Below are positions 8,371-25,719 of a stretch of DNA of 64,000 nucleotides, one piece after another; position 1 is the first letter of the stretch; every line of letters starts with the position of its first letter. The notes under the pieces are model-generated. The model worked only from the letters and a program-made list of their open reading frames with translations. It was not told the origin of the DNA and searched no databases. This stretch comes from Dehalococcoidia bacterium (lineage in GTDB: Bacteria > Chloroflexota > Dehalococcoidia > Bin125). Both the position numbers and the translations under genes were made by a program. The stretch lies in assembly GCA_965205165.1 (NCBI GenBank), contig OZ242037.1, positions 1,706,576 through 1,770,575 of the forward strand. Reading direction: 5' to 3'.

Positions 8371-9234
8371 ATGGCCGTAAAGAGCACCTATCGGGCACTG
8401 AGCTTGGGAGCGGGCGTGCAGAGCACCGTGCTCGCCCTCCTGCTCTCACGGGGTGACAGCCGGCTCCGAAAGCGCGGCTATCCGACACCGGACGTCGCGA
8501 TTTTCGCCGACACCGGCTGGGAACCGCAGTACGTCTACCGCCATTTGGACTGGCTGACCGAGGAGCTCGCGTTCCCTGTCGAGATTGTGAGGGCGGGTGA
8601 CCTGCGCGAGAACCTGCCGCGCGCCCGGACGCCGCAGGGCTACCGGTTCGTGGATGTGCCCCTCTTCACGGTCAACCCCGACGGCAAGAAGGGGATGCTC
8701 CGCCGCCAGTGCACGAACCACTACAAGGTCGCGCCGATCACCAAGGCGGTCCGTGAATGGGCGGGCGGCGTTCGAGGCCGCCCGTTCCCCCCCGATACGC
8801 GGGTTGAGATGTGGCTCGGCATCTCGACCGACGAGGTGCTCCGCATGAAGCCCAGCCGCGAGCACTGGATCGACCATCGCTGGCCGCTGATCGACCTGGA
8901 CATGTCCCGCCAAGATTGTCTAGACTGGTTCCATGCCCACTACCCGGACCGCCACCTCCCCCGCTCCGCCTGCGTCATCTGCCCCTTCCGGTCCGACGCG
9001 CATTGGGCCGAGCTCCGGGACGAGGAGCCCGAGAGCTACGCGGAAGCCGTGGCGTTCGACCGCTCGCTGCGCCAAGGCAGGAGTCGTCACGCGGTGCGCC
9101 GAGTCATCGATGGACGCCCGTATCTCCACGCTTCCCGGCGCCCGCTGGACACGGCGACCGTGGAAGGCTCGCAGGGCCCTGCCATCGACCTTGACGAGTT
9201 CGTCTCAGAGTGCGAAGGCATGTGCGGTGTCTGA
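8371..9234 (+). CDS. PAPS-reductase-like PP-loop ATP pyrophosphatase (DndC/SspD/phage PAPS-reductase-like; predicted nucleic-acid modification enzyme)
   Basis: A 'SLGAGVQST' PP-loop (SGGxDS-type) lies near the N-terminus and a C-terminal Cys cluster 'SACVICPFRSD' is present. An ATG at 8371 follows 'GAGGAGG'. The ORF could instead begin at the GTG at 8350. Confidence 0.8.
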   Translation: MAVKSTYRALSLGAGVQSTVLALLLSRGDSRLRKRGYPTPDVAIFADTGWEPQYVYRHLDWLTEELAFPVEIVRAGDLRENLPRARTPQGYRFVDVPLFTVNPDGKKGMLRRQCTNHYKVAPITKAVREWAGGVRGRPFPPDTRVEMWLGISTDEVLRMKPSREHWIDHRWPLIDLDMSRQDCLDWFHAHYPDRHLPRSACVICPFRSDAHWAELRDEEPESYAEAVAFDRSLRQGRSRHAVRRVIDGRPYLHASRRPLDTATVEGSQGPAIDLDEFVSECEGMCGV

Positions 9235-10486
9235 CAGGACCACATTCGTGGAGACAGCCCTCCCTCTTCACGATTATCAACGACAGGTTCTGCATGACCT
9301 GCTGGTCGCAGTCTTGCCATCCCGGACATCAGGGAGGGGCGGACGCGCCGTTGCCCACATGCCGACCGGAGCAGGGAAAACTCGAATGGCTTGCCATGCC
9401 GCTGCGACGATCCTGAATCAGTGGCCAGCTGAGGGAAAGGTCGTTGTCTGGCTCGCATCATCTGAAGAGCTCTGCGAACAGGCGGCCGATTCGCTGCTGG
9501 AAGCGTGGCGAAGCATCGGTAATCGCGGTATTGCCCTCCATCGGTTCTGGGGTTCCGATGTCGCGCCACTGGAAGATATCTCCGAAGGGTTTCTCGTTGC
9601 CGGGCTTCCCAAATTGAGGGCTGCCGCTAGCCGTAAGCAAGGTCTACTTGCTCCCCTCGCCCAGAACGTTGCTGGTATATTCTTTGATGAAGCGCATCAA
9701 GCGATCGCTCCTACCTATTCGTTGATAACGGAGCAACTTGCGACATACAGTCCGCCACTGATCGGTCTTACGGCTACGCCCGGTCGCACCTATGAAGTCA
9801 AGGAAGAAGACGAGCGTCTAGCCGATATGTTTCATCATAGGAAAGTCGCAATCAATCCACGTGGTCACGAGAACGCGCTCACGTATCTTATTCGGAATCA
9901 GTATCTTGCGGAACCAGATTTTCACATCATGCAAGTTGATTCATCGATCGATCTTGATGAACCATCAGTAGATGCCGAGTACCGCACCGATGGTCTCCGT
10001 TCACTGGGGCGAGACGAGGCTTGGAGAGCGGCGGTTGCATCGGTCACACGTGACGCACTATCACGGCACCGGCGGGTGATTGCATTCTGTCCCTCTGTGT
10101 CTTGCGCGATCAACGTTGCCGAGACACTCAAATCGGAGTCGCTAAATGCTGATGCTATTACTGGCGAAACGCCAACTGAGGACCGCATAGATACTATAGA
10201 TCGTTTCCGCAGCGACTCTCGGATTCCGATGGCGCTGATAAATTTTGGAGTACTCACAACTGGCTTTGACGCCCCACAGACAAGCTGCGTCATCGTTGCT
10301 CGCCCGACTAATTCTTTAGTACTATATTCGCAGATGGTAGGACGCGCAATGCGTGGTCCTCGCTCAGGAGGAAATAGAGACTGCACAATCTATTCACTGA
10401 TCGGTCCAAGCCACGTCGCTTTCGATTCGGTCATCCACGAGTTCGAGCATTGGGAAGAACTATGGCAGACCGAGCAGAACAACTGA
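9227..10486 (+). CDS. Superfamily-2 DEAD/DEAH-box helicase (type III restriction Res-like minimal helicase)
   Basis: Motif I is 'AHMPTGAGKT', motif II 'FFDEAHQ', motif III 'LTATPGR' and motif VI 'QMVGRAMRG'. The start overlaps the upstream stop. The start codon is uncertain and may be the GTG at 9227. Confidence 0.8.
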   Translation: MSDRTTFVETALPLHDYQRQVLHDLLVAVLPSRTSGRGGRAVAHMPTGAGKTRMACHAAATILNQWPAEGKVVVWLASSEELCEQAADSLLEAWRSIGNRGIALHRFWGSDVAPLEDISEGFLVAGLPKLRAAASRKQGLLAPLAQNVAGIFFDEAHQAIAPTYSLITEQLATYSPPLIGLTATPGRTYEVKEEDERLADMFHHRKVAINPRGHENALTYLIRNQYLAEPDFHIMQVDSSIDLDEPSVDAEYRTDGLRSLGRDEAWRAAVASVTRDALSRHRRVIAFCPSVSCAINVAETLKSESLNADAITGETPTEDRIDTIDRFRSDSRIPMALINFGVLTTGFDAPQTSCVIVARPTNSLVLYSQMVGRAMRGPRSGGNRDCTIYSLIGPSHVAFDSVIHEFEHWEELWQTEQNN

Positions 10487-12288
10487 AACTTAATGAGCCA
10501 CTGTTTGACCCACAAGTGGCGATGCGTGCGATGCGCGACAGTAGATACCGGAGAGAATCTAACGCGATCGCTGAACTCATTGACAACTCTGTTGATGCGC
10601 GTGCGCGGCGTGTTGAGCTGCTGCTATTCGAAGAGCAGCGACAAGGCAACGTGAATGATGTATGGCGAGTGGGCCAACTCGCAGTGGTTGACGATGGCCT
10701 CGGCATGGATCCGCGCACGCTCCAGCAGGCGCTCCGGTTCGGTGGAAGATCAGACGACGGACGGATCCACCGCATTGGAAAATACGGCGTCGGGTTGCCG
10801 ACAGCATCGGCGTCACAATGCCTTCGCGTTGATATTTGGACATGGCAAGAGCCGACAGAACAGCCGTGGCATTGTTTTTTGGATATTGGTGCTATTGAGC
10901 GAGGTGAAGTCAGTTCCATAGCGCCTGCAGAGCGTCACCCCTTGGATGAGAGAGTGCGCCGATTCGTGACAAGCCAAGGCTTGCGGAGTAATAGTGGCAC
11001 GGTGGTGCTGTGGAGTGACATAGATCGCATCAAGGCGCGACCAGAAACCATCTTTGGACGCCTTGAGCGTGAAATTGGCCGAATCCACCGACACCGGATT
11101 AGCGATGGCCGACTGACGATACACGCCCGTGCGATTAGAGACGGAGTTGTTCGACCAGAGACCGACAGATCACTTCGCCCAAACGATCCATTGTTTTTGA
11201 TGGAGGATACTGCCACAGCGCCACCTTGGGATCACGAGCCGATGTTTAAGCCATATGGTGAATCTATGCGCTACACTGTAGATGTCGATGGCCGAATGGA
11301 GCATGTAGAAGTTCGATACTCAATGGTGAAACGAGAAGCAATCGGTAATGATCCGACACAGCCTGGACGGCGGCCACATGGTAAAGATGCCATGGAGAAT
11401 GCGGGCGTCTCCATTGTTCGAGAGGAGCGAGAGCTGTTACTTGATCGCTCGTTCGTCGGCGCGGGGGCACGACGCGATGAACCTCAGCATCGATGGTGGG
11501 GTTGCGAGGTCAGGTTCGATTCAGGATGTGACGATCTGTTCGGAGTTGATCACAATAAGCAGATGGCATCAGCGTTTTCCGATTTGGCGGAAGAGATGGC
11601 AAGGAGTGATGATGCAGATTATGTGTTGAGGGAACAACTCAAGGAAGATCATCAACTCTATGAGATCGTTGAAGATATCAGAAGCACTATTCGTGCAATG
11701 CGTGGAGAAATCAATCAAATGTTTGGGCAGAGGCGTGCAGCTTTGCAAAGATCTAAGACTATATCGCCAGAGAAAGAGGCAGAACGTCGGGCCTCGCTCG
11801 CCGTAGCCGATCAACTAGAATCAGGAGCCACACTTACACAGACTGACAGAATGCGAGAACAGACGAGTCCAGAAGTGCGCATAGCACGGTTCGCAAGTTT
11901 CCTGCAGGATCGTGGAGTTGCTGACCCCGAGGATAGTGCTCGTGAGCATGTGGAAGAGAATATTTGGTTTCGGTTCCGATCCGCCGAACTGAGCGGATCT
12001 CAGATATTCATGGTTGAGCGAAGTGAAGGTATCTTGGTCGTAGTCCTCAATGTGCATCACCCGATTCATAAGTTCATCCAATTTCTCGAGCAACGAGAAG
12101 ATAATCAAATGGCCCACCAGTCAGCCGTGGCTATTCTAACACTGATTTTGGCATGGGCCCGCATGGAAGATCATATCGAACGAACCGACGATCGCCGTGA
12201 ATTGCAAAACATCGCTATAGAGTGGGGCAAGCAAGTGGAAAGAATATTGGCGCAACTGGTGACAGAGCTCAGTGCAGGAGACTTATAG
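10450..12288 (+). CDS. GHKL-superfamily ATPase (MORC/MutL-like, HATPase_c)
   Basis: The N-box 'AIAELIDNSVDA' and the G1 box 'VVDDGLGMD' match the Bergerat ATPase fold. The gene overlaps the helicase 3' end. Confidence 0.75.
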   Translation: MGRTMADRAEQLKLNEPLFDPQVAMRAMRDSRYRRESNAIAELIDNSVDARARRVELLLFEEQRQGNVNDVWRVGQLAVVDDGLGMDPRTLQQALRFGGRSDDGRIHRIGKYGVGLPTASASQCLRVDIWTWQEPTEQPWHCFLDIGAIERGEVSSIAPAERHPLDERVRRFVTSQGLRSNSGTVVLWSDIDRIKARPETIFGRLEREIGRIHRHRISDGRLTIHARAIRDGVVRPETDRSLRPNDPLFLMEDTATAPPWDHEPMFKPYGESMRYTVDVDGRMEHVEVRYSMVKREAIGNDPTQPGRRPHGKDAMENAGVSIVREERELLLDRSFVGAGARRDEPQHRWWGCEVRFDSGCDDLFGVDHNKQMASAFSDLAEEMARSDDADYVLREQLKEDHQLYEIVEDIRSTIRAMRGEINQMFGQRRAALQRSKTISPEKEAERRASLAVADQLESGATLTQTDRMREQTSPEVRIARFASFLQDRGVADPEDSAREHVEENIWFRFRSAELSGSQIFMVERSEGILVVVLNVHHPIHKFIQFLEQREDNQMAHQSAVAILTLILAWARMEDHIERTDDRRELQNIAIEWGKQVERILAQLVTELSAGDL

Positions 12289-13113
12289 ATGCGTGCTGTT
12301 GATATTCTGAGTGAACATGCAGCATCTGCCGACGCGGCAGTAATTGTGGCACCGTATATAAAAGAAGACGCACTGAAACCTCTCCTTGAAAAATTACCTC
12401 CTGCCGCGACATTGCTTTGTGTCTCTAGATGGACCGTGGAAGATGTACGTCGTGGCGTATCTGATATTACCTGTTTCAGGCAAGTGATAGACCATGGCGG
12501 TACGTTCCGGCTACATCAGCGCCTACATGCAAAATATTTCCGATTCAGTGATGCTGTATTTATTGGCTCGGCAAATGTAACGCAGAATGGATTAGGCATA
12601 TCGCTTTCACCAAACATCGAGATTCTCCATTCACCGAGTCAGTCTTTTGATGCGCAAAGGTTCGAAGATGAGATAATTGCCGAATCGATTGCAATAAATG
12701 AGAATGAAGCCAAGCTTTGGCAAAAGATACAACAGACGAATCAGCTGGATAATGAGTTATTGCAAGAAGCAATGGCGATGGATACTTGGCTGCCAACGAC
12801 AAGAGAACCATATCATGTGTGGCTGGCATACAGTAGACGAAGTGGTGAAATCATATCGGCAGATGAACGAAGACTCGCGGAACGAGAGTTGGAAAGACTA
12901 AGATTCCCTGAAAACTTAGAAGAAGCTGATTTTAATTCATGGCTCGCAGCTCGTCTATTGAGCTCAGCACGAGTATATGATGTCAGGCTTTCGTTGCAGT
13001 TGGAGGATGCAGTTGGTTGGGATCTCTTGGTCGCGAGATGGGGGGTGAGCCGGAGTGTGGCGGCCCGGACCCAGACGACGGTTGCGAACTGGTTGCGGGA
13101 GATGGTGGGGTGA
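12289..13113 (+). CDS. Phospholipase-D-family (HKD) nuclease, single HKD motif (Nuc/BfiI-like)
   Basis: The motif 'HAKYFRFSDAVFIGSANVTQNGL' is H-x-K-x4-D-x6-GSxN. The ATG starts immediately after the upstream stop. Confidence 0.75.
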   Translation: MRAVDILSEHAASADAAVIVAPYIKEDALKPLLEKLPPAATLLCVSRWTVEDVRRGVSDITCFRQVIDHGGTFRLHQRLHAKYFRFSDAVFIGSANVTQNGLGISLSPNIEILHSPSQSFDAQRFEDEIIAESIAINENEAKLWQKIQQTNQLDNELLQEAMAMDTWLPTTREPYHVWLAYSRRSGEIISADERRLAERELERLRFPENLEEADFNSWLAARLLSSARVYDVRLSLQLEDAVGWDLLVARWGVSRSVAARTQTTVANWLREMVG

Positions 13114-13174
13114 ACCGTTAGTCATTGATGGAGATTCTGCCGCCGGAGTTCGACCGCTGGAAGACCTGATCGGG

Positions 13175-14347: not shown

Positions 14348-15540
14348 TGGCGGCCGACGGCGCGACGCTCGCGCGCGAGGCCGAACGGCGCATCCGCGCC
14401 TACGAGCGGCTCGGCATCCACCGCACCGGCTGGGGCGCCGACGACGCGGCCGCGCACTGGCTGGTGGAAGAACTGGCCGCCATCGGCATCGAAGGCCGGG
14501 TCGAGCAGTTCGATTTCCCGCAGCTGCACATCCGCCGCGCCGAACTGCGGATCGGCGACCGCGCCGTCCCCGGCGTCCCGCTCTACGACTGCGGGACGAC
14601 TGGACGCGAGGGCGTCTCCGCCCCGCTGATCGCCGCGCCCGACGGAGTGCTCGCCGGCCCGGGCCCGGCAATCGCGGTCTGGGAGCTGCCGGACGCCGAC
14701 ACGCGGCGGCTGACCCCCGCGGTCTACGAAACGCTGGAATCGCTGGCCGCGGCCGGCGCAATCGGCGTGCTGATGGTCATGGGCGACGAACACGGCGATC
14801 CCGTCCTGCGCAACGCCGAGCGCCCCGACGACCCGCTCCCCCTGCCCGTCCTGCAAGTCGCCCCCAAGGACATCGGCGAAGGCTTGGCCGGCGAAGCGAC
14901 GCTCGTGATCGACGCCGAGCGGCGGCCGGGCACGGCGCTCAACGTCGCCGCGGAGATCGCCGGGGCGAACCCGTCGCTCGCGCCGGTGGTGCTGATGACG
15001 CCCAAGAGCGGCTGGTACACCTGCGCGGCCGAGCGCGGCGGCGGCCTCGCCGTCTGGCTCGCCGTCGCCGAGGCAATCGCAAAGCAGCCCGGCGAGCGGA
15101 CCCTGAGCCTGATCGCCAGCAGCGGCCACGAACTCCACCACTACGGCCTCGACGCCTGGCTAGACGGCCCGCCCGGCGTGCCGGCGCAGGACGCGCACGT
15201 CTGGATCCACCTGGGCGCGAGCATCGGCGCCAAGCGCGGCATCGGCCGCATCGGCGCTGCCGACGAAGAGCTGATGGCGCTGGCCAAGCAAGCGCTGGCC
15301 GAACACGGCATAGATCGGGACCCGATGGCCGTCGGCTTCTCCGGCTACGGCGAAGCCCGCAACATCGCCGAGCGCGGCGGCCGCTACATCAGCCTCTTGG
15401 GCGGCCACCCCTACTTCCACAGCCCCAACGATGTCTTCGAGCAGGCGGTGGACATCGAGTCGCTGGTCGCGCACGCAATTGCGTGGCGCTCGCTGGTTGC
15501 CGAGCTCGCGCAATCTGCCGATGCTGGCGCGACGGGGTAA
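14347..15540 (+). CDS. Hypothetical protein (possibly peptidase-like)
   Basis: A 397-aa ORF with strong GC3 codon bias. Its ATG overlaps the upstream stop as TGATG. No confident family was recognised. Confidence 0.5.
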   Translation: MAADGATLAREAERRIRAYERLGIHRTGWGADDAAAHWLVEELAAIGIEGRVEQFDFPQLHIRRAELRIGDRAVPGVPLYDCGTTGREGVSAPLIAAPDGVLAGPGPAIAVWELPDADTRRLTPAVYETLESLAAAGAIGVLMVMGDEHGDPVLRNAERPDDPLPLPVLQVAPKDIGEGLAGEATLVIDAERRPGTALNVAAEIAGANPSLAPVVLMTPKSGWYTCAAERGGGLAVWLAVAEAIAKQPGERTLSLIASSGHELHHYGLDAWLDGPPGVPAQDAHVWIHLGASIGAKRGIGRIGAADEELMALAKQALAEHGIDRDPMAVGFSGYGEARNIAERGGRYISLLGGHPYFHSPNDVFEQAVDIESLVAHAIAWRSLVAELAQSADAGATG

Positions 15541-15551
15541 CGGAGCCGGCC

Positions 15552-17207
15552 ATGGCCGATTTCAACGCGGTCAACCGCGGTGTTTATGTGGCCGACAATC
15601 TGGAATTCCTGCGGCGCTTGAATGACGAGTGCATCGACTTGGCCTGCATCGATCCGCCGTTCTCGAAGGGCGACACGTTCGAGGGCGATCAGCTCAAACC
15701 CGATCTGTCCGACCACGAGCGCGAAGTAGAGCTGCGCCTGCTCCGAGGTTGGGGAATCCACGACGAGAACGACGCAAGCGACGCCGGCATCGCCTGGCCC
15801 GCGACGACGGCCGCCGGCTTCAAGGATGTCTGGTCGTGGGAACAGGATATCCATGAGGATTGGATCAAGGACTTGGCCGAGAACCACGCGCCGACGAGCG
15901 ATTTGATCGAGACGACGCGACTCATCCACGACGATCACATCGCGGCGTACCTCTGCTACATGGCGGTTCGACTAATCGAGATCCACCGCGTGCTCAAGCC
16001 CACCGGCAGCCTGTTCCTGCACTGCGACCACACGGCCAATGGCTACCTGCGCCAGCTGCTCGACAGCGTGTTCGGCAAAGACCAAATGCAGAATGAGATC
16101 ATCTGGTGCTATGCCCCCGCCGGCCGCCCGCCGAAGCGCGGCTTCCACCGCAAGCACGACACGATTTTCTACTACCGCAAGGCGAATGCGGGCTCGTTCA
16201 ATCATCAATACGGCCCGATGTCGCCGGAGACCTTGGCGACCTACTCGGAAACGGATGAAGAGGGCAGGCAATATAAGATCGCGCAGGGCGGGCGCCGAAC
16301 CTATCTCGATCAACAGCGCGGACGGCCGATCCCGTCGTGGTGGGATGACATTCCGTCATTCGGAACTGCAACGAATGCGCCGGAGCGCACGGGCTACCGC
16401 ACCCAGAAGCCGATCGCCCTCGCCGAACGCATCATCAGCGCCAGCACGAACGAGGGCGATGTCGTGCTTGACTGCTTCGCCGGCTGCGCATCCTCCGCGA
16501 TTGCCGCGGAGCGCTTGGACCGCAGATGGGTAGCCTGCGACCTGAACCCAAGAGCATGGACGGTGTTCAAGCGGCAATTCAGCAAGCCGAAGCTGGCGCT
16601 GTTGAGGTGCAGCGACGAAGTCTCCGGCCAAGCAGTATGGGGCGACGAGCCAGTCGTGACGGTGCACGGTCCCGGAAATCTGCCCGCTCGCACCTCGCAA
16701 GCCCAAGAGCAGCAGCCCGAGAAACGCGAACCGCACGAGCGTAAATTCAAGGTCCCCTCAAGCATCATCCCCGAAGAAGAGATGAAGGAAAAACTGCTGG
16801 AGTTCTCCGGCTACAAAGCGTGGTGCTGCGGTTTCGCCAACCGCCTGCCGGACGGCACGATCATCAAGACCACGCGCAACTTCCACTTGGATCACATCCT
16901 CCCCCGCTCGGAAGGCGGCTCCCATCAGATCATGAATCGTGCGCCAATGTGCCCATCACACAATCTCCGCAAGAGCACCCGTTCCGTGAATCTCGTTGAA
17001 TACCAGCGCGAGATCGCAGCCGCAGGCGAGCTCTGCGTCGAATCAATTGAGGAGCTCGTTGACCTACCGGAAGCCTATGAGTACGCACTAAAACTCTATG
17101 GCCAAGCCTATCAAGCTGATCAAAGAGTTAAGATTATGAAAACGAGCGTCTCAGTCTACCAGCAAACCACACTCAATCCCAATCGCCTAAGTGAGGTTAA
17201 CCGATGA
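15552..17207 (+). CDS. DNA methyltransferase (beta-class N6-adenine/N4-cytosine) fused to a C-terminal HNH endonuclease domain
   Basis: 'IDLACIDPPFSKGD' is motif IV (DPPY-type) near the N-terminus, and 'VVLDCFAGCASSAIAA' is the later AdoMet motif I. The C-terminal 'FHLDHILPRSEGGSHQIMNRAPMCPSHN' is an HNH motif. Confidence 0.8.
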   Translation: MADFNAVNRGVYVADNLEFLRRLNDECIDLACIDPPFSKGDTFEGDQLKPDLSDHEREVELRLLRGWGIHDENDASDAGIAWPATTAAGFKDVWSWEQDIHEDWIKDLAENHAPTSDLIETTRLIHDDHIAAYLCYMAVRLIEIHRVLKPTGSLFLHCDHTANGYLRQLLDSVFGKDQMQNEIIWCYAPAGRPPKRGFHRKHDTIFYYRKANAGSFNHQYGPMSPETLATYSETDEEGRQYKIAQGGRRTYLDQQRGRPIPSWWDDIPSFGTATNAPERTGYRTQKPIALAERIISASTNEGDVVLDCFAGCASSAIAAERLDRRWVACDLNPRAWTVFKRQFSKPKLALLRCSDEVSGQAVWGDEPVVTVHGPGNLPARTSQAQEQQPEKREPHERKFKVPSSIIPEEEMKEKLLEFSGYKAWCCGFANRLPDGTIIKTTRNFHLDHILPRSEGGSHQIMNRAPMCPSHNLRKSTRSVNLVEYQREIAAAGELCVESIEELVDLPEAYEYALKLYGQAYQADQRVKIMKTSVSVYQQTTLNPNRLSEVNR

Positions 17208-18517
17208 CTGAATCATCGTACTATGGGCTGTTTTGGCCAACATCCCAATCACGCCACCGCCACGCTGTGCCAGGACAGCTCAAAGTCGCGCCAACGGGTA
17301 AGCTGTCGCTTACCCTGTTCTCGCCCCATTATGATGCACGACCTCCGTGGTTTATCCCTCTTCCCGGCGATCCTGTTGAGCGATCTGTGTCGGGTGAGAT
17401 CTCGGGCCTTGGCGCTATCACCATCTTCCGTTGCGTGACCGGATCGCACACTCTATCATTCGGTCTAGATCAAATTATTGTCGCTGAGATGCTCTGTGGC
17501 GACGGTGCCGTTACACGTGTCGCCGCAAACTGCCATACCAGTCTTCGATTAAAGAACTTTACCCTTCCCGTTCCAGAGCTTTCATTATGGCGAGGAATCC
17601 CGTGGGTTCGTCCTGATGAGCACCGCCCTAGAAACGAATATGGATTTACTGTTACTCTTCCGGAATCGATCCGTGCGCAAGTGCAGCGCAATGAGCATCT
17701 GACGATAGATTATAGATATGAGCCGCAAGGAGGCGGAGCCAGCGACGATCGATTCAGCATCCGGTGCACACCAGCTGTAACATTAGCAGCAGCACATGGG
17801 CTCGATATTGATTGTGCACTCCAACGAATCCATGCGATAAAGGCATTCTTCATATTTCTACTAGATTCCCCGATCACTGAATCGCACCTTCTCTGCACCA
17901 TTGAGCAGCTAGCTCTTCGCCCTTCTGTGTGGATGCGAGATTTGCAGCACAATCGATGCGAATTGCTATTGACGCCCTTTCAATATAATTATCGCGAACG
18001 CAAACGCAATCTCCATGATGTTCTGCTGTTCGAGTCGGAGATAGTCTCAAATTTCAGCCAGATGCTCGAGCAATGGCTTCAGGTTTATACGACCGCACCT
18101 GAAGCCATTGTTCAATTCTTGGATGCCGTTCACAGTGAAGATTATAGACTTAATATTAAGTTTCTATTGCTCACCCAAGCGTTTGATGCCCTGCATCGAA
18201 CTAAAACGAAAGAGCAAGACAAGGCTTTCCGCGTTCGTCTTAATGATTGCCTAGCATCCTATCCAAGTTTGTTCGGTGATCAGGCTGCGCGACTTGATCT
18301 CATCGATCAAATTGTTCACACCCGCAATCGATATACACATGGCAGCGAGCGTCGGCCTGAATTTGAAGCTGGCGACGCAGAATTGTTCCCTCTTGCCCGA
18401 AAGATGGAAGCGATCATCATGGTATATTTACTGGATTGGCTTCTTCCAGATAACCATCAGTGGCCAACGCTGATCAAACAACGTCGGCCGTTCAAGGCAC
18501 GCATTAATCCAACATAG
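17204..18517 (+). CDS. Hypothetical protein with a C-terminal HEPN-like R-x4-H motif (Abi/ApeA-like candidate)
   Basis: Its ATG overlaps the MTase stop as ATGA. The gene is low in GC. The C-terminal 'LIDQIVHTRNRYTHG' fits HEPN R-x4-6-H. No other family was recognised. Confidence 0.5.
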   Translation: MTESSYYGLFWPTSQSRHRHAVPGQLKVAPTGKLSLTLFSPHYDARPPWFIPLPGDPVERSVSGEISGLGAITIFRCVTGSHTLSFGLDQIIVAEMLCGDGAVTRVAANCHTSLRLKNFTLPVPELSLWRGIPWVRPDEHRPRNEYGFTVTLPESIRAQVQRNEHLTIDYRYEPQGGGASDDRFSIRCTPAVTLAAAHGLDIDCALQRIHAIKAFFIFLLDSPITESHLLCTIEQLALRPSVWMRDLQHNRCELLLTPFQYNYRERKRNLHDVLLFESEIVSNFSQMLEQWLQVYTTAPEAIVQFLDAVHSEDYRLNIKFLLLTQAFDALHRTKTKEQDKAFRVRLNDCLASYPSLFGDQAARLDLIDQIVHTRNRYTHGSERRPEFEAGDAELFPLARKMEAIIMVYLLDWLLPDNHQWPTLIKQRRPFKARINPT

Positions 18518-18636
18518 TCAATCTGTTTTAATGTGATGGGGCGTGATGAAACACTAATGATATAGATGGAACAGAGAATTCGCCGCTGCGACATGAGACG
18601 CGCTGAAATTGTCTATCTGGCTATTGGATGCAACCG

Positions 18637-19122
18637 CTATCGCGTGGCCCAAGTAACCTGCCTCTCATCGCGTTGCACCTGATCCAGTGTCTGGTAATAG
18701 AAATGATGGAGGAACGGGAGCTGCGGCTCGCGGCCGTGTTGGAGGAACATCCAGAGCCAGAGGACGCGGCCGCTGCGGCCGTTGCCGTCCATGAAGGGAT
18801 GCAGGGTTTCGTAGCGGATGTGGGTCTGCCAGAGGTCGATCGGGTGGGTGTTGGCGTGATTGAGCAGGTCTGCAAGGTCGGTGCGGATTTTGGGGCCGCC
18901 TTGCGGCGGCGTGTGGTTGCCGACGAAGACGTTCATGCCGGGGTGTTCGCGGAGCTCGGCGTTGGCGCAGGTCCAGACGAACTGCTGCATGTCGCCGACG
19001 GTGATGTCGCGTTGGTCGAGGAACAGCTCGTGGGCCTCGATCTCCGCCTCGGTGACGCGGAAGATGCCCTCGATCCGGTTCGATTCTTCGACGAAGTCAT
19101 GCAGGTTGAATTCGCTGGGCAT
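18637..19122 (-). CDS. Fic/DOC-family protein
   Basis: It carries the canonical Fic motif 'HPFMDGNGRSGR' (HPFx[DE]GNGR). Confidence 0.85.
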   Translation of the reverse strand: MPSEFNLHDFVEESNRIEGIFRVTEAEIEAHELFLDQRDITVGDMQQFVWTCANAELREHPGMNVFVGNHTPPQGGPKIRTDLADLLNHANTHPIDLWQTHIRYETLHPFMDGNGRSGRVLWLWMFLQHGREPQLPFLHHFYYQTLDQVQRDERQVTWATR

Positions 19123-19132
19123 GTCGATTCTC

Positions 19133-20356
19133 CTAACCGATACCGGCTCGCCGGATGGCGGCGGGTGCCGCCGGGGCGGCGAGCTCCGAGAGTACCTCGG
19201 CCGTATCCGCGCCGAGCAGCGGCGGCGGGCGGCGGATGCGCCACGGGGTCCGGCCGAGCTTGTAGGGCGCGCCGGGGATGGTTTGTTCCCCGTCCGCGGT
19301 TTGGATTTCGCGCCAGAAGTCGCGTTGCGCCAGCTGGTCGGACTCGGCGACTTCGGCGATGGTATGGACGGGCTGGAAGCTAATCCGGTTGGCGGCGAAC
19401 TGCTCCCAGAGTTCCTGCTTGGTTCGTTCTTTCATCCACGGATGCCAGAGCGCGTCGATTTCGTCGGCCCATTGGAAGGCGGTCCAGCGGTTCTTGAGGC
19501 GCTCGTCGTGCTGCCAATCGGGATCGCCCAGCAGCTCCATGAAGCGGTTCCACTGATCATCGACCAAGGTGATGACCTCGAAGAATCCATCCTTGGCGGG
19601 CGCGACTTGGTACGGATAGAACGAATTCATGCGCACGCCGGCGCGGGAACGGTTCTGGCCGGCGAACAGATACGCGGCGACGCCCGCGCCGGCCATCACG
19701 GAGCTGACGATATCGACGATGCTGACCCAGACATGCTGCCCGCCTGCGCCGTTGCGGGCGGCGCGGCGGCCGAGCAGGGCGGCGATCGCGCCGTGGATGC
19801 CGCCTTGGAATTCGGGCGCGTTGTAGGGCAGGCCGAGCGGCGAGCGGTCGGGGTCGCCGATGCGGTAGGAGATGCCGGAGGCGAGCGAAGCGGTGAGCGA
19901 GGCGGCCTGCCAGCCTTCGCGGCGGGTGCCGATGCCCCACATCGTGATCGAGACCTGCGCGAGCTCCGGGTTGGCGCGCGCGAGGTCGTCCCAAGTCAAG
20001 CCGAGGCGTCGCTGGTCGGCGATGGGGCGGGAGGTGATCACGGCGTCGCTGGATGCGGTGAGCCCGCGGAAGAGCCGCCGCGCCGCCGCGGTTTCGAGAT
20101 CGAGCACGATGCTCCGCTTGTTGGTGTCGAGGAAGAGGTGCAGGCCGCCGCGCTCGCGGTGCGGGAGGTCGCGCGGGAACGGCCCGCGACGGCGGATGTC
20201 GTCGCCCTCGGGAGGCTCGATCTTGATCACGTCGGCGCCGAGATCGGCGAGCAGCTTGCCGGCGTAGGAGGCGGCGATGCCGCCGCCGTCCTCGATGATG
20301 CGCACCCCTTCCAGCGCGAGCGGAGGGTCGGCGACAGCGCCGTCGGCGTCGTTCAT
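19133..20356 (-). CDS. CoA-transferase family III (CaiB/BaiF)
   Basis: The N-terminus 'LEGVRIIEDGGGIAASYAGKLLADLGADVIKIEPP' and the family-typical length of 407 aa match. Confidence 0.85.
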   Translation of the reverse strand: MNDADGAVADPPLALEGVRIIEDGGGIAASYAGKLLADLGADVIKIEPPEGDDIRRRGPFPRDLPHRERGGLHLFLDTNKRSIVLDLETAAARRLFRGLTASSDAVITSRPIADQRRLGLTWDDLARANPELAQVSITMWGIGTRREGWQAASLTASLASGISYRIGDPDRSPLGLPYNAPEFQGGIHGAIAALLGRRAARNGAGGQHVWVSIVDIVSSVMAGAGVAAYLFAGQNRSRAGVRMNSFYPYQVAPAKDGFFEVITLVDDQWNRFMELLGDPDWQHDERLKNRWTAFQWADEIDALWHPWMKERTKQELWEQFAANRISFQPVHTIAEVAESDQLAQRDFWREIQTADGEQTIPGAPYKLGRTPWRIRRPPPLLGADTAEVLSELAAPAAPAAIRRAGIG

Positions 20357-20419: not shown

Positions 20420-21370
20420 ATGTCCACCGAGATCATCACGTCGCGCGACCAGCTGCCGGATCCGGAGCTGGTGGAGGCCGCGCCCGGCGTCTTCGCCTAC
20501 GTGCAGCACGATGGCTCGTGGTGCCTCAACAATCCGGCCTTCATGACCTCGGCGGACGGCGTGATCGCGGTCGACGCCTGCGCGACGGAGCGGCGGACGC
20601 GCGGATTCCGCGAGGCGATCGAGCGCATTTCGGAGCAGCCGGTGCGGACGCTGATCAACACGCACGCGCACTTGGATCACACGTTCGGCAATCACGTCTT
20701 CAAGCCGGACGCGACAATCATCGGCCACCGCAACACGCGGGCCGAGTTGCTGCGCGACCGGGCGGCGATGCCGGACCGCGCCAAGCTGATGTTCCCCGGC
20801 GTCGAGTGGGGCGATGTCGATGCGACTCCGCCGGATGTCACGTTCGACGAGGAGCTGGCGATCTACGCGGGCGATCTGGAGCTGCGGCTGATCTACGTAT
20901 CGCCGGCGCACACCAATACCGACGTGGTGATCTGGCTGCCCGAACACCGGACGCTGATTGCGGGCGACATCATATTCAACCAAGGCACTCCGTTCGCGCT
21001 GATGGGCAGCATCGCGGGCTGGCTGGATGCCCTGGAACGGCTGCGCGGGCTTGGCGCGGAGACGATCATCCCCGGCCACGGCCCGGTCTGCGGCCCCGAA
21101 GTATTCAACGAGGTGGCGGATTATCTGCGGTTCGTGCAGGCGACGGCGGCGGAGGCGCAGGCGACGGGAGCGCCGCCCCTGCAGGCCGCGCGGGAGGCGG
21201 ACTTGGGCCGTTTCGCGGAATGGCACGACAGCGAGCGGATCGTCGGCAACCTGCACCGCGCCTACAGCGAACTGAAGGGGGAGCCGAGGGGTGCGGAGAT
21301 CGATACGGGCAAGGCGTTCGGGGAGATGCTCGAATACAACGGCGGCGAGCCGTTGCGCTGCCTCGCCTGA
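20420..21370 (+). CDS. MBL-fold metallo-hydrolase
   Basis: The 'LINTHAHLDHTFGNH' motif is the HxHxDH zinc-binding signature. Confidence 0.8.
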   Translation: MSTEIITSRDQLPDPELVEAAPGVFAYVQHDGSWCLNNPAFMTSADGVIAVDACATERRTRGFREAIERISEQPVRTLINTHAHLDHTFGNHVFKPDATIIGHRNTRAELLRDRAAMPDRAKLMFPGVEWGDVDATPPDVTFDEELAIYAGDLELRLIYVSPAHTNTDVVIWLPEHRTLIAGDIIFNQGTPFALMGSIAGWLDALERLRGLGAETIIPGHGPVCGPEVFNEVADYLRFVQATAAEAQATGAPPLQAAREADLGRFAEWHDSERIVGNLHRAYSELKGEPRGAEIDTGKAFGEMLEYNGGEPLRCLA

Positions 21371-21398
21371 GCGGGATAGGCTGGCAGGGGAGCGGGCG

Positions 21399-21902
21399 AT
21401 GGAACGCGAGCTGACGCTGAAGTTCGAGGGGCCGGCCACGGAGCAGGTGCACATCCCGGTGCGCAGCCTGCTGGCCATCGTCGATGTGCTCGAGGGGGCG
21501 ATCCGCAAGCGCTGCGGCAGGCTGCACACGCTGAAGACGATGTGCGAGCTCGAAATCGTCTCCTTCGACGCGCCATCGAGCACCGCCCAGCTGCGCCTGC
21601 AAGGCCCCGAGGACTGCGAGCGCGCCTGGCGCTCGGAAGACCCGCTGCAGCGCGTGATGACGGAGCTCGAACGCACGGCCGGCGACACCCCGCACCTGCC
21701 GGGACGGCTGCGTTGCCAGATCGCGAGCAAGCTGGCGGAGGGGCTCCGTCGGGTTGAGTTCGCCGCGCCGGCATGCGGATCGCCGCAGTGGATCGTGTGG
21801 GACGAGCGCGAGTCGCGGCCGTTCAGCCTGCTCCGCCCGGAGGAGAAGATGCCGAACTTCGACGCCGAGGCGTTCAACGACTTGGTGGAGAGCATGCGCT
21901 GA
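21399..21902 (+). CDS. Hypothetical protein, putative cognate partner/antitoxin of the downstream PIN toxin
   Basis: A 167-aa ORF whose stop overlaps the PIN gene start. No recognised fold. The assignment rests on position only. Confidence 0.4.
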   Translation: MERELTLKFEGPATEQVHIPVRSLLAIVDVLEGAIRKRCGRLHTLKTMCELEIVSFDAPSSTAQLRLQGPEDCERAWRSEDPLQRVMTELERTAGDTPHLPGRLRCQIASKLAEGLRRVEFAAPACGSPQWIVWDERESRPFSLLRPEEKMPNFDAEAFNDLVESMR

Positions 21903-22351
21903 TGCCGGATGCGGAATTCAGCGGCATTGAGCTGATCGCCGACACGAACATCTTCTCGTACGAGATGTCCGATCAGCCGGAGTCGATCGAGATCGCGGCG
22001 CGCTACCGGCACGTTTGGGAGGGGCGGCGCGTCGGCTTGTCGTTTCAGTCTGTCGCCGAATTGCGCGTCGGCCTCGAACTGCAAGGGTGGGAGATCGGCC
22101 GATATGAAGAGCTGATGAGCCGGTTCACGCCGATCTATCTGCTGCCCGGGATCGTCGACGCCTATGTCCGCATCCAGGTCGAAGCGGCGCGGCGGGGGAG
22201 GGGTGAACCGGCACGGCGCTCGAAGGCGGGCGATGCGTGGGTGGGCGCGACGGCGCTGTGGCTGGGGGCTCCGTTGGTGACGCACAATGGGCGGGATTTC
22301 AGGGCGGCGGAGGCGCTGGGGTTGGAGGTGGTGAGCCATGGGGGGTGGTGA
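21902..22351 (+). CDS. PIN-domain protein (VapC-like toxin)
   Basis: 'IELIADTNIFSYE' carries the first catalytic Asp, followed by '...AWVGATALWLGAPLVTHNGRDF'. The ATG overlaps the upstream stop. Confidence 0.75.
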   Translation: MPDAEFSGIELIADTNIFSYEMSDQPESIEIAARYRHVWEGRRVGLSFQSVAELRVGLELQGWEIGRYEELMSRFTPIYLLPGIVDAYVRIQVEAARRGRGEPARRSKAGDAWVGATALWLGAPLVTHNGRDFRAAEALGLEVVSHGGW

Positions 22352-22357
22352 GGGGAG

Positions 22358-22378
22358 GGGCGCTATCCTGCGCGGAGC
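22358..22378 (+). promoter_or_regulatory. Recurrent promoter-like motif GCGCTATCCTGCGCGG (approximate coordinates) upstream of enoyl-CoA hydratase 22394
   Basis: The motif is identical to the 13.18-kb instance and again precedes GAGGAGG and an ATG. Confidence 0.45.
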
Positions 22379-22393
22379 CTGAGGAGGTGCTTG

Positions 22394-23278
22394 ATGGCGA
22401 TGCCGGAGTTCGAGAACGTGGTGATCGATCGATTGGGGACGGACGGGCGGGTCGGACGGATCACGCTGAACCGCCCGGAGAAGATGAACGCGCTGTCGCA
22501 GGAGCTGATCTACGACCTGCGGGACGCGCTGGAGTACGTGGAGACGGATGACGGGATGCGGGTGCTGATCCTGCGGGGGGCGGGACGGACGTTCTCGGCG
22601 GGCTACGACCTGACGCCGGCGGGGGGCTACGGGGCGGACGCGATCCACCGCGGGTTCCGGACGACGGACGACGATGGGAACCGGCTGATCATGGGGATCC
22701 GCGGGGGGATGGCGCGGGTGACGGACATCTGGCTCTACTTCTGGAACATGCAGAAGGTGACGATCGCGCAGCTGCACGGGTACGCGATCGCCGGGGGGTT
22801 CGAGCTGTCGATGATGGCGGACTTGGTGACGGCGGCGGATGACACGCAGCTGGGGCATCCGGGGCTGCGCTTCGCGGGGAGCCGGACGTCGGCGATTTTG
22901 CCGCTGCTGACTTCGATGCGGAAGGCGAAGGAGCTGTTCTACACGGGGGATCCGATCCGGGCGACGCGGGCGCAGGAGCTGGACCTGATCAACTACGCGT
23001 GGCCGAAGGAGGAGCTGGAGGAGCGGACGCTGGCGCTGGCGGAGCGGATCGCGAACCTGCCGGCGGACCACTTGGCGCAGCTGAAGGTGCACGTCAACCG
23101 CTTCTACGAGAACATGGGCATCTACTCGTCGCTGCGCTCTTCGACGGACTTGGATGCCGTGGGGACGTTCACGTCGCAGCACTACGAGTGGGCTCGCAGG
23201 ATGCGCGACGAGGGGCTGAAGGGGGCGCTGGCGTGGCGCGACGGGCCGTTCGGGGACTACTCGCAGGGCAAGCGCTGA
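22394..23278 (+). CDS. Enoyl-CoA hydratase/isomerase family protein
   Basis: Crotonase motifs 'ITLNRPEKMNALS...TFSAGYDL' are present. The RBS GAGGAGG lies 7 nt upstream of the ATG. Confidence 0.85.
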   Translation: MAMPEFENVVIDRLGTDGRVGRITLNRPEKMNALSQELIYDLRDALEYVETDDGMRVLILRGAGRTFSAGYDLTPAGGYGADAIHRGFRTTDDDGNRLIMGIRGGMARVTDIWLYFWNMQKVTIAQLHGYAIAGGFELSMMADLVTAADDTQLGHPGLRFAGSRTSAILPLLTSMRKAKELFYTGDPIRATRAQELDLINYAWPKEELEERTLALAERIANLPADHLAQLKVHVNRFYENMGIYSSLRSSTDLDAVGTFTSQHYEWARRMRDEGLKGALAWRDGPFGDYSQGKR

Positions 23279-23330
23279 GCAGGCGCCGGCGCAACCGCCC
23301 CCGCGTTCCGCGCTTTCGTGGCCTGCGGAG

Positions 23331-23861
23331 CTAGGCGCGTTCGAGGCCTTGGGCTTCGCGGAGGGCGTTGAGCTGGTCGGCGTGCATGCCGTCGTGGAAG
23401 GCTTGGAAGAGCATCCAGGCGCGGGAGGGGAGTTCGCCGAAGAAGGCGTGGGGGACCGTGGTTCGGGCGTCGGGCTCTTCGGGCAGGCGTTGGCCAACTG
23501 AGAGGAGGTGTTCGGAGACAGAGACGAGGCGGGCGCGGAGTTCGCGGATGGGGGCGTTTTCGGCGTTGATTTCGCCGGGAGGGCCTTTCGGGGTGGTGCT
23601 GCCATTGGCGGTGGATTCGATGATTGCGGCGACGTTGGGGGTGGCGGTGATGAGGTGGCGGATGACTTGGGAGGCGGACCAGGCTTCTTCGCCTTGGCCC
23701 GTTGGGGGAGTCCAGGAGGCTTGGGCGTCGGAGAGGTCGAGGGTGGCGGCGATGAGGGAGGCGCGGGCGCGGGCGGAGCGGAGCCAGATTTCGGGCCAGG
23801 GGAGGGTTTCGGCGTCGCGGAGGAAGCCTTGGCGGAGTCGGAGGAAGGGGTCGTCGGGCAT
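23331..23861 (-). CDS. DinB/YfiT-like (DinB_2) family protein
   Basis: A 176-aa protein whose His pattern '...HLITATP...HDGMHADQL' is typical of the DinB_2 helical bundle. Confidence 0.6.
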   Translation of the reverse strand: MPDDPFLRLRQGFLRDAETLPWPEIWLRSARARASLIAATLDLSDAQASWTPPTGQGEEAWSASQVIRHLITATPNVAAIIESTANGSTTPKGPPGEINAENAPIRELRARLVSVSEHLLSVGQRLPEEPDARTTVPHAFFGELPSRAWMLFQAFHDGMHADQLNALREAQGLERA

Positions 23862-23914
23862 TGGGGGATGCTAGCGCGAGCGGGCTTTGGGGGTAAACTG
23901 CCGGGCGAGAGGGT

Positions 23915-24772
23915 TTGGACGCGAGGCGGGCGATGGGCGAGGTGCTGCGGGATCTGAATTGGCCGCGATTGCTGGCGTTTCTGGCGATTGCGGGGGTGGC
24001 TGCCGGGGTGGCGTTCGCGGCTGGGTCGTTGAGGGGGTCGCGGGAGGAGACCGTGGGAGGGGAGCATGATTTGACGCTGTCGCTGAAAGCGGCGTCGTAT
24101 TGCGAGGCTTGGGATGCGGAGGGGGTGCTGGACGGGGGGGAGCGGGTTTGGCCGGTTTCGAGGGCGCCGGTCGTGGAGGTGGGGTGGTCGTTGACGGCTG
24201 GGCTGGGGCCGTATCGGTTGGAGATCGAGGGGGAGGAGTACGAGGGGACGAAGGGGGTGGCGGAGGTGCCTTGCGCGATGTCGTACGAGCTGCTGGAGGA
24301 GGCGCATCCGCGGCTGGGGAAGTTGTTCGATCCGGAAGCGCCGATCGTGGTGGAATCGGGGGTGCGGGAGATTCGGGCGATGGCTTGGGATGCGGAGGGG
24401 GCGATCGGGGAGGCGTCGATCGAGGTGTACGTGATTCGGGAGGTTGGGCTGGACGAGGCGATGATGGGGGGGCGGACGTACCGGCTGGGGGCGTTCCGGC
24501 AGTTGGTGACGGTGCCGGAGGGGATTTCGCTGGCGTACGGGGGGAGTTACCAGCCGGATTGCGGCGACATAGAAGCGGAAGAGGGTTGCGAGCGGGTGCA
24601 TGTATTCAACGTGACGGATCCGCCGAATGGGGGGCGGATCGGATTGTACCGGCACTCGTGGAGGGAGCATTTCCGGGAAGTGGGGGTGGCGGAGGTAGAT
24701 GGCATGGCGATGGATGATTTGCTGGATCAGTTCGAGCAGTCGATCGGGCGGCACCCGGAATTGCAGCGTTGA
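23915..24772 (+). CDS. Hypothetical membrane-anchored protein
   Basis: The N-terminal hydrophobic segment 'LLAFLAIAGVAAGVAFAA' suggests a membrane anchor. A TAAACT -10-like box lies upstream. Confidence 0.45.
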   Translation: MDARRAMGEVLRDLNWPRLLAFLAIAGVAAGVAFAAGSLRGSREETVGGEHDLTLSLKAASYCEAWDAEGVLDGGERVWPVSRAPVVEVGWSLTAGLGPYRLEIEGEEYEGTKGVAEVPCAMSYELLEEAHPRLGKLFDPEAPIVVESGVREIRAMAWDAEGAIGEASIEVYVIREVGLDEAMMGGRTYRLGAFRQLVTVPEGISLAYGGSYQPDCGDIEAEEGCERVHVFNVTDPPNGGRIGLYRHSWREHFREVGVAEVDGMAMDDLLDQFEQSIGRHPELQR

Positions 24773-24819
24773 GGGGAGGTAGGCATTGAAGCGAGGCTTG
24801 GCGGCGTTTGGGGTGGGCA

Positions 24820-25719
24820 TCAGCGGAATTCTTTGATGATTTGGTCCATGAATTGGTCGGCTTGTTCGGTGCGTTCGAAGGCGTTGGAGCCGAGGGTGAA
24901 ATCGGGGATGATGAGTTCGTCGACGCCGGCGTCGATATAGGCTTGGATGGTGTTGAGGATGTCGTCTTTGGAGCCGCCGAGGACTGGGCGTCCGGCGGCG
25001 CGGGCTTGGTCGAGGCGTGCTTGGTCTTGGGTTTGGATGAGGAGGGTGCAGGCGCTGCGCTGGATTTCCGAGGGGTCGCGGCCGATGTCCTGGCAGTGGT
25101 CGTCGAGGACGTTGTTCTTGTGGGCGAGGACTTCGGGGGTGCCCCAGACGTTCCACTCGTCGGCATACTTTGCGGCGATGCGGAGGGTGCGTTTTTCGCC
25201 GCCGCCGCCGATCATGAGGGGGAGCGGGGTTTGGACGGGCTTGGGTTCGAGGGGGGCGTCGACGAGTTGGTAGTGCTGGCCGGCGAAGTTGGTTTTCTGG
25301 TAGCGGAAGAGTTCGGTGACGAGTTGGCAGGCTTCTTCGAAGCGGTCGAGGCGTTCTTTGAGGGTGAAGAAGGGGATGCCGTAGGCGCGGTGCTCGTTTT
25401 CCTGCCAGGCTGCGCCGAGGCCGAGGGTGAAGCGGCCGGCGGAGACGATGTCGAGTTCGGCGGCCATTTTGGCGACGACGGCGGGGTGGCGGTAGGTGTT
25501 GCCGGAGACGAGGTGGCCGATGCGGACTCTGGGGACGCGGACGGCGAGAGCGGTGAGGGCGACCCAGCTTTCGTGGACGGGGGCGGAGGTGTCTTCTTGG
25601 TTGGGCATGAAGTGGTCGGCGAACCAGAGGCGGTCCCAGCCGGAGGCTTCGGCGTGTCGGGCGACGGTGAGGATTTCGGCCCAGGGGTTGCCTGCGCCGG
25701 GCCAGAATCCGAATCGCAT
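24820..25719 (-). CDS. LLM-class F420-dependent oxidoreductase
   Basis: The 299-aa product starts 'MRFGFWPGAG...' with the LLM signature. It has its own GGAG RBS, although the upstream frame is open. Confidence 0.85.
   Translation of the reverse strand: MRFGFWPGAGNPWAEILTVARHAEASGWDRLWFADHFMPNQEDTSAPVHESWVALTALAVRVPRVRIGHLVSGNTYRHPAVVAKMAAELDIVSAGRFTLGLGAAWQENEHRAYGIPFFTLKERLDRFEEACQLVTELFRYQKTNFAGQHYQLVDAPLEPKPVQTPLPLMIGGGGEKRTLRIAAKYADEWNVWGTPEVLAHKNNVLDDHCQDIGRDPSEIQRSACTLLIQTQDQARLDQARAAGRPVLGGSKDDILNTIQAYIDAGVDELIIPDFTLGSNAFERTEQADQFMDQIIKEFR

Follow-up and report, generated by a model that had tools for sequence, protein, structure and literature searches.

Turnover of ApeA-class HEPN cassettes at a fixed slot behind a methyltransferase–HNH fusion gene in a Dehalococcoidia genome

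When a gene for a DNA methyltransferase (MTase) fused to an HNH nuclease domain runs directly into a gene for a predicted HEPN ribonuclease, are the two encoded proteins halves of one dedicated defence system, or do their genes merely share an operon? The question is raised by a locus in a Dehalococcoidia bacterium (assembly GCA_965205165.1, contig OZ242037.1), within a stretch of 64,000 nucleotides (contig positions 1,706,576 to 1,770,575, forward strand) that we call the window and whose own numbering is used below. The window has an overall GC content of 0.66 with two AT-richer islands, the second of which contains the MTase-HNH fusion gene; the gene for a 437-residue protein of the ApeA family and a convergent Fic gene follow (Table 1). 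An earlier note, made from the letters of the window, had proposed a layered system in which restriction or modification is coupled to an RNA-targeting suicide effector, and had offered, as an alternative, an HEPN gene that inserted later and rides along with the MTase operon. We find that a cassette slot lies between MTase-HNH and Fic, with effector turnover at a fixed chromosomal site, and that the MTase-HNH/ApeA pair is no general two-gene system. It appears reasonably probable that a mobile MTase-HNH resembling a restriction-modification (R-M) enzyme and an autonomous HEPN abortive-infection protein, ApeA, the latter on an exchangeable cassette, are co-expressed here in a defence hotspot.

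The slot becomes visible when the window is compared with the corresponding contigs of sister strains, cited here by locus numbers (L001 and so on). The flanks are 85-98% identical at the nucleotide level, and all loci share a backbone: upstream, genes for a luciferase-like and a 397-aa protein; downstream, the Fic gene and a CoA-transferase gene. Homology is lost on the left at ~17119-17178 and regained on the right at ~18637-18671, at the Fic stop codon, with breakpoints at 17178/18637 for L002 and at 17119/18670-18671 for L003 and L005; in L004 the left break lies at 16785, within the MTase gene ahead of the HNH part. The contents of the interval vary. The window and L001 hold one class of ApeA, L002 a second (448 aa) behind a 52-codon open reading frame (ORF), L004 a third that is fused in frame to an MTase without HNH (852 aa in all), and L088 and L005 a fourth, intact in the former and split into two ORFs in the latter. 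L003 and L085 carry a trypsin-like protein (Trypsin_2; PADLOC PDC-S45), and L086 (6704-7210, minus strand) and L087 (2510-3016, minus strand) a 168-aa RNase_T/Rv2179c-like DEDD exonuclease co-oriented with Fic. As a deoxydinucleotidase (diDNase), the product of the L086 gene is a doubtful candidate, its Pfam families being RNase_T and Rv2179c-like and not the NrnC-like DEDDy group to which diDNases are assigned (PMC11706625). The four ApeA classes share 20-27% identity pairwise, and the R-x4-H motif is kept in all of them.

Composition and divergence both set the cassette apart from its surroundings. The description of the 437-aa gene as markedly AT-richer is borne out by a GC content of 0.495 against 0.60 in MTase-HNH, with 0.445 in the intergenic spacer, and the cargo measured in the sister strains is likewise AT-rich (0.42-0.52 for the ApeA genes of L001, which is the window allele, L002 and L005 and for the trypsin-like gene of L003). 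Between 17170 and 18668 the window and L001 differ by 6 substitutions in 1.5 kb (0.4%), five of them in the ApeA ORF and all synonymous, the sixth in the 3' spacer, whereas the MTase and Fic genes have diverged by ~4-5%. This disparity implies that the ApeA cassette was recently transferred between lineages and has its own history, more recent than that of the flanks. The strain comparison bears out the alternative of a later insertion, homology breaking exactly around ApeA. The junction within L004 (8001-10559) is of a different kind: its MTase is 95% identical up to about residue 410 and is joined exactly at the ApeA N-terminus, with no separate start codon, in what could be either a functional or a dead gene.

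Is the pair found together anywhere else? When one genome per species was taken, 196 relatives of MTase-HNH were recovered, almost all from metagenome-assembled genomes of Dehalococcoidia/Chloroflexota and often in several copies (a maximum of six in OZ242043.1, and five each in OZ251484.1 and OZ241860.1). A hidden Markov model (HMM) of ApeA relatives was applied to all ORFs at 83 loci and gave matches in the window, L001, L002, L004 and L005 alone, all of which represent the orthologous locus; at the paralogous MTase-HNH loci it found ApeA in 0 of 74. One further case of linkage, L088, also represents this orthologous locus, and there were no others. From the side of ApeA, for which eight loci were sampled, the relatives on four plasmids and in four other metagenomic or genomic contexts stand alone, and none of the eight has an MTase as its neighbour. 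Because ApeA is missing at the 74 paralogous loci and the MTase at the eight ApeA contexts, the pair is not a general two-gene system. The idea that the 437-aa gene is generally linked to an MTase-HNH therefore fails, the linkage recurring at one orthologous locus whose slot also takes non-HEPN genes, and the layered system of the earlier note survives in part: co-expressed layers are plausible, and a dedicated two-part MTase-HNH/HEPN system finds no support in these loci. One of the paralogous MTase-HNH genes, in L056, is followed by a gene (7590-9485) for a DUF4379-repeat protein with a DUF559/restriction endonuclease-like end.

What does the junction itself tell us? The stop codon of MTase-HNH and the start codon of ApeA do overlap, as had been noted, by 4 nt on the same strand ('cgATGAct', 17204-17207), and GAGG stands 7 nt upstream of the ApeA ATG. 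Alignment of the 3' ends from six strains shows that an ancestral ATGA lies at 17136-17139 and that a 1-nt length difference relative to the sister strains brings it in frame; the MTase-HNH of the window therefore continues for ~23 codons past the ancestral ATG, through the remnant of a leader ORF (MKTSVSV…), until it meets a second ATGA. This one opens the incoming ApeA cassette, which supplies its own Shine-Dalgarno sequence. The sister proteins terminate in …QADRESTS or …QGDRK, and of the 15 listed members of a 27-member 90% cluster, more have 528 aa than any other length. A scan of 15000-19400 for promoters and terminators and for repeats yielded nothing exceeding background. Given the ATGA junction and no promoter-like site in between, ApeA is probably co-transcribed with MTase-HNH and translationally coupled to it, although the junction by itself is no demonstration of a partnership at the protein level.

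The two genes also appear to have reached the site separately. In L002, L005 and L088, a decayed copy (74-146 nt, 76-84% identity) of the 3' part of the 397-aa gene lies between MTase-HNH and ApeA, for which the simplest reading is that MTase-HNH inserted into the 3' end of the 397-aa gene, beside an already occupied slot, and duplicated its target. Imperfect direct repeats of 25-416 nt flank 13 of 78 MTase-HNH copies, compared with 0, 0 and 1 when flanks are paired at random, which suggests that the single MTase-HNH gene is mobile and duplicates a long stretch of its target when it inserts. Such insertion, together with allelic substitution, has been described for R-M genes (Furuta, Abe & Kobayashi 2010, PMC2853133). 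Repeat-flanked copies of the family occur among the paralogues L005-L083, for example L017, L045, L062 and L066. Searches returned no relatives of MTase-HNH in the viral contigs of IMG/VR and no full-length relative on plasmids, and the window contains no tRNA gene as an integration target.

The MTase-HNH protein most likely begins at the ATG at 15552, with GGAG 6 nt ahead of it; since the gene before it extends to 15540, the GTG at 15483 is the less likely of the two possible starts. The methyltransferase domain matches Pfam N6_N4_Mtase (E=3.8e-33) and the PADLOC type II model MTase_II (2.2e-51), and motif IV precedes motif I, so that the assignment to the beta class, made from DPPF lying ahead of motif I, holds. 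Among solved relatives, M.MboIIA (2e-15) and M.RsrI (1e-12), both beta-class N6-adenine enzymes, come closest. The C-terminal string that had been read as an HNH nuclease, HLDHILPRSEGGSHQIMNRAPMCPSHN, is present, and its H, N and C positions vary hardly or not at all in an alignment of 24 homologues. The domain matches Pfam HNH (E=6.9e-5, 23.4 bits against a cut-off of 21.4), HNH_5 and HNH_4, as well as the NCBIfam model of the IscB/Cas9d HNH region and the HNH families of PHROG (~1e-8). In the same alignment, the MTase motifs DPPF and FAGCA and the HNH residues C425, C426, H445, D447, N462, C467, H470 and N471 are invariant, H448 is nearly so, and the H/N/H residues and Cys/His zinc ligands are kept together in 22 of the 24, the window included. 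In two of the proteins, P0003 (from L003) and P0005, HLDY replaces HLDH, which suggests that the catalytic histidine of the HNH domain has been lost in some lineages, including the trypsin-like-cassette strain L003. Columns ~240-440 of the alignment are hypervariable, with large indels between conserved flanks, and form a target-recognition region that varies among paralogues. Homologues number more than 3000, many of them full length at 50-62% identity; an AlphaFold2 model made from the 24 sequences is poor, with a predicted local distance difference test score (pLDDT) of 56.9. From these matches we infer that MTase-HNH is a self-contained R-M-like unit, or at least a sequence-specific methylase with an attached and presumably active ββα-Me nuclease.

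The 437-aa protein is a very divergent member of the Pfam ApeA family, of the short ApeA/BMEI1217 class, and we do not class it as an orthologue of the experimentally validated ApeA. The HMM searches place it above the cut-offs of both Pfam models, in agreement with the earlier reading as an HEPN protein of ApeA type: ApeA_NTD1 matches residues 5-291 over profile positions 1-271 of 271 (E=3.6e-17, 63.2 bits against 25.5) and HEPN_Apea residues 329-411 (E=4.1e-9, 37.4 bits against 24.4). Among the PADLOC models it matches PDC-S58 (4.5e-18) and the HEPN part of Cas13-ApeA (9.3e-17), and gives no match at E<=0.1 to the ApeA model; the Pfam and NCBIfam scans found no ABC-ATPase domain. The R-x4-6-H pattern from which the HEPN reading had started is worthless as evidence by itself, since it occurs 5 times in this protein and ~4 occurrences are expected by chance. 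The motif gains its significance from the HMM matches and from an alignment of 129 relatives in which R374 and H379 do not vary and N375 and T378 are at least 90% conserved. An AlphaFold model built on this alignment (pLDDT 88.5; predicted template modelling score 0.89) has a beta-rich N-terminal half, for which a tail-tube/Hcp-like fold is suggested in the ApeA_NTD1 region, and an all-helical C-terminal domain, a four-helix HEPN fold in which the motif sits where helix 360-379 ends, so the HEPN reading stands. Homologues are remote. Word-indexed searches with the single sequence (5.8 billion clusters) and with a profile returned the protein itself only, and sequence and profile searches of the PDB found no structure of an ApeA, whereas an exhaustive phmmer search of 1.8 billion representatives gave 266 matches, the best non-self match having E=3.4e-15 and identities being 20-30%.

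The ApeAs that have been studied experimentally are larger, at ~580-600 aa, and consist of an N-terminal, a Mid and a split-HEPN domain; they assemble into decameric or dodecameric rings and cleave tRNA anticodon loops (10.64898/2026.01.26.701840). Ec2ApeA is activated by 5'-phosphorylated deoxydinucleotides (pdNG), which are thought to stem from DNA degradation, whereas Ec1ApeA is unresponsive to dinucleotides (10.64898/2026.01.26.701840) and can also cut the genomes of RNA phages (10.64898/2026.03.20.713152). By analogy with these enzymes, we infer a ribonuclease mechanism for the ApeA of the window. The short class was defined computationally in 2013 as ApeA/BMEI1217 (PMC3710099).

How, then, might the locus work? 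In the reading that we favour, MTase-HNH and ApeA would act side by side. The beta-rich N-terminal domain of ApeA would serve as a sensor for the C-terminal HEPN domain, through which the protein would dimerise and form a composite, metal-independent RNase site from R374 and H379. The protein would remain latent until an infection cue is bound at the interface between the N-terminal and HEPN domains, and would then cut tRNA anticodon loops or other RNA, bringing translation to a stop. The cell would in this way express a DNA-level and an RNA-level defence from one operon. Autonomous action of ApeA would be in line with the validated ApeAs, which are single-gene systems (10.64898/2026.01.26.701840, 10.64898/2026.03.20.713152).

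Several observations weigh against such independence or against the defence role itself. A stop/start overlap with the next ORF is present also in L002, with the short leader, and in L003 and L085, with the trypsin-like gene; because it recurs with both, the overlap is a standing property of the slot and not a peculiarity of ApeA. Some paralogous MTase-HNH genes have single-gene effector candidates 3-65 nt downstream, such as a SIR2/PDC-S65 gene (3.4e-199) at +23 nt in L079 (7742-9517) and a gene for a TIR-effector-like protein (3.3e-10) at +65 nt in L074 (7763-8773). Four very different ApeA classes share one slot, though any defence gene could fit there, L004 contributes one metagenomic observation of a natural in-frame MTase–ApeA fusion, and the short ApeA class is without a demonstrated defence member, one 467-aa 'minimal' homologue having been untransformable (10.64898/2026.03.20.713152). 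A guard-type coupling as in PrrC–EcoprrI would make sense of much of this: MTase-HNH would be the first line of defence and would keep the downstream effector (ApeA, or the protease in other strains) inactive, until a phage anti-restriction factor that disables or titrates MTase-HNH frees the effector and the cell dies. The persistence of co-orientation and overlap at the slot, the fusion, and the effector-type genes directly behind two paralogues all suit it, and PrrC/EcoprrI and the ApeA/BMEI1217 genes within epsilonproteobacterial R-M operons (PMC3710099) offer precedents. We nevertheless hold this coupling to be unlikely, as ApeA and the MTase do without each other at all paralogous loci and all other ApeA contexts sampled, the direct-repeat remnant points to insertion of MTase-HNH beside a pre-existing slot, ApeA alleles of 20-27% identity would all need the same protein interface, and the L004 fusion is a single case, lacks HNH and may be a dead gene. 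Quite unlikely, in our estimate, is the more general scheme in which MTase-HNH would be the fixed sensor or guardee half and the coupled slot would take interchangeable suicide effectors (ApeA classes and the trypsin-like protease here, SIR2 and TIR-like proteins at paralogues) that fire when the enzyme is attacked or is degrading invader DNA, the L004 fusion being its single-chain version.

Two further explanations would give the nuclease domain a different part to play. As a selfish element, MTase-HNH would be a homing or addictive mobile gene, with HNH as a homing or post-segregational killer nuclease, and the HEPN toxin would be island-stabilising cargo with no role against phages. The cargo is indeed low in GC, and the multi-copy family with flanking direct repeats resembles the R-M insertions with long target duplication (PMC2853133), but tested proteins of the ApeA family protect against phages, no antitoxin candidate adjoins the gene, and the viral contigs of IMG/VR hold no relatives of MTase-HNH; selfishness and defence are, moreover, not mutually exclusive, and we regard a purely selfish role as decidedly improbable. 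An ordinary toxin-antitoxin pair was rejected, as there is no small partner gene and the relatives stand alone. In a metabolite relay, finally, HNH would cut unmethylated invader DNA, and short 5'-phosphorylated deoxy-oligonucleotides or dinucleotides would activate ApeA, so that restriction is turned into an abortive-infection alarm. Here an ApeA-class gene does stand directly behind a nuclease gene, but an HNH endonuclease by itself is not expected to produce dinucleotides, L004 keeps an ApeA without HNH, and P0003, which is paired with a different effector, has HLDY for HLDH. The response of Ec2ApeA to pdNG deoxydinucleotides (10.64898/2026.01.26.701840) lends the idea its appeal; Ec1ApeA, however, gives no such response, the architecture differs (the window protein has 437 aa and its N-terminal domain is beta-rich, while the other class has ~580 aa and its N and Mid domains are helical), and the window ApeA is 20-30% identical to the matches found, so the ligand pocket is not transferable. 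We consider this relay very improbable indeed.

The concept of a link between R-M genes and HEPN genes has been known since 2013, and ApeA is an established defence gene, so the concept put forward in the earlier note is not new. ApeA/BMEI1217 genes had already been noted inside R-M operons of epsilonproteobacteria (Anantharaman et al. 2013, PMC3710099), and like them, and like PDC-S58, the window protein combines ApeA_NTD1 and HEPN_Apea in a similar length with a mostly beta N-terminal domain; it differs in that its partner is a single-chain beta-MTase–HNH, its host is Chloroflexota-like, and the linkage is confined to one cassette-exchanging locus. With the validated ApeAs (Gao et al. 2020; Ec1ApeA/Ec2ApeA) it shares a C-terminal domain of HEPN_Apea type with R-N-x3-H, a single polypeptide with a putative N-terminal sensor, and a location in defence-rich, strain-variable DNA. 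Unlike them, it has 437 instead of ~580-600 aa, does not match the PADLOC ApeA model, is operonic with MTase-HNH, and has an N-terminal domain that models as mostly beta, whereas the N and Mid domains of Ec2ApeA are described as catenin-like and PafA-like. PrrC–EcoprrI, an anticodon nuclease in a type Ic R-M locus, is similar in that a gene for an HEPN-type RNase lies within or beside an R-M locus, with which it is co-transcribed, and in the proposed logic of DNA restriction first and translation shut-off second. In PrrC, however, the N-domain is an ABC-ATPase, and EcoprrI masks the nuclease physically; the likeness of our locus lies in gene arrangement, and its linkage is not kept across families. 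Layered defence was also proposed in 2013 for 'three-level' neighbourhoods of R-M, RloC-like HEPN and DOC genes (PMC3710099), with which our locus has in common an R-M component, an HEPN RNase and a Fic/Doc gene, although here Fic is convergent, present in all strains and outside the exchanged cassette. Mobile R-M units (PMC2853133) likewise have flanking direct repeats and different cargo at one locus in conspecific strains, but the unit in the window is one fused gene, and the substitution affects the neighbouring gene, not the R-M gene.

New elements are the single-chain beta-MTase–HNH partner family, which has expanded in Dehalococcoidia-like genomes, the exchange of very deeply diverged ApeA alleles at one fixed slot with probable translational coupling, the natural MTase–ApeA fusion, and the fold suggested for ApeA_NTD1. 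If the favoured reading of two separate, co-expressed defences is true, the locus would be a clean natural case of effector-cassette turnover in an uncultured lineage, with alleles ~75-80% different between flanks that differ by 3-15%. It would also make available a set of short ApeA-class proteins for side-by-side comparison, and a large, apparently mobile MTase-HNH family that pipelines would annotate as plain methyltransferase. Were a coupled reading true instead, the locus would be a second, modular case, after PrrC–EcoprrI, in which a restriction enzyme guards a suicide RNase.

Table 1. Features of the MTase-HNH/ApeA locus and of the second low-GC block, in window coordinates.
Feature	Positions	Strand	Basis
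MTase-HNH fusion gene, 551 aa	15552..17207	+	Pfam, PADLOC, homologues
MTase motif IV, DPPF	15651..15662	+	D34, P35, P36 and F37 invariant in 24 homologues
MTase motif I region VLDCFAGCAS, S-adenosylmethionine (AdoMet) binding	16464..16493	+	Alignment of 24 homologues
HNH nuclease core, AWCCGF…HLDH…NRAPMCPSHN	16818..16979	+	Pfam, NCBIfam, PHROG
Read-through C-terminal tail of MTase-HNH, ~28 codons	17121..17207	+	Six-strain 3'-end alignment
Strain-variable cassette: GAGG Shine-Dalgarno (17193-17196), ApeA ORF, 3' spacer; GC ~0.49	17179..18636	+	
ApeA/BMEI1217-class HEPN protein, 437 aa	17204..18517	+	Pfam, PADLOC, AlphaFold2
HEPN catalytic motif, R374-N-R-Y-T-H379	18323..18340	+	Family alignment, AlphaFold2 helix 360-379
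Short Fic protein, 161 aa, convergent	18637..19122	-	Pfam, PADLOC
PAPS-reductase/SspD-like gene	8350-9234		PADLOC SspD 5.7e-11
SF2 helicase	within 8933-10486		
GHKL ATPase	10450-12288		MzaB-like 6e-18
PLD/DrmC-like protein	12289-13113		

The convergent gene that closes the slot is a Fic gene as described earlier, with matches to Pfam Fic (E=2.8e-7, 31.7 bits against a cut-off of 24) and to SoFic of PADLOC (1.8e-13). Its Fic motif, HPFMDGNGRSGR, at residues 108-119 (18766-18801), conforms to HxFx(D/E)GNGRxxR, and SNRIEG at residues 14-19 (19066-19083) resembles an inhibitory helix, fitting the consensus of the inhibitory motif, (S/T)xxxE(G/N). The gene is present in all sister loci at 86-98% nucleotide identity, and its composition is nearer that of the host (GC 0.62; GC at third codon positions 0.83 for the L003 orthologue). 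It belongs to the conserved backbone of the locus, outside the exchanged cassette, and may therefore be a resident gene rather than a part of the system.

Elsewhere in the window, a second strain-variable block of low GC (0.44-0.57) lies at 8323-13126, two core genes upstream, and holds the last four genes of Table 1; in sister strains, its place is taken by a DUF6339 gene with three unannotated genes, or by an MTase gene with genes for a 200-aa protein and a Peptidase_M78. The block is possibly an undescribed four-gene defence candidate. GC skew is unusually strong, from +0.3 to +0.56, across 22000-28000, a region that includes an 882-aa ORF (24820-27468, minus strand) whose counterpart in L002 combines ParB_N and HTH_ParB with a luciferase-like monooxygenase domain and a long linker rich in Pro and Gln. 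At ~21291-22351 on the plus strand, a small gene and the PIN-domain gene downstream of it are kept in the sister strains and are likely a toxin-antitoxin pair.

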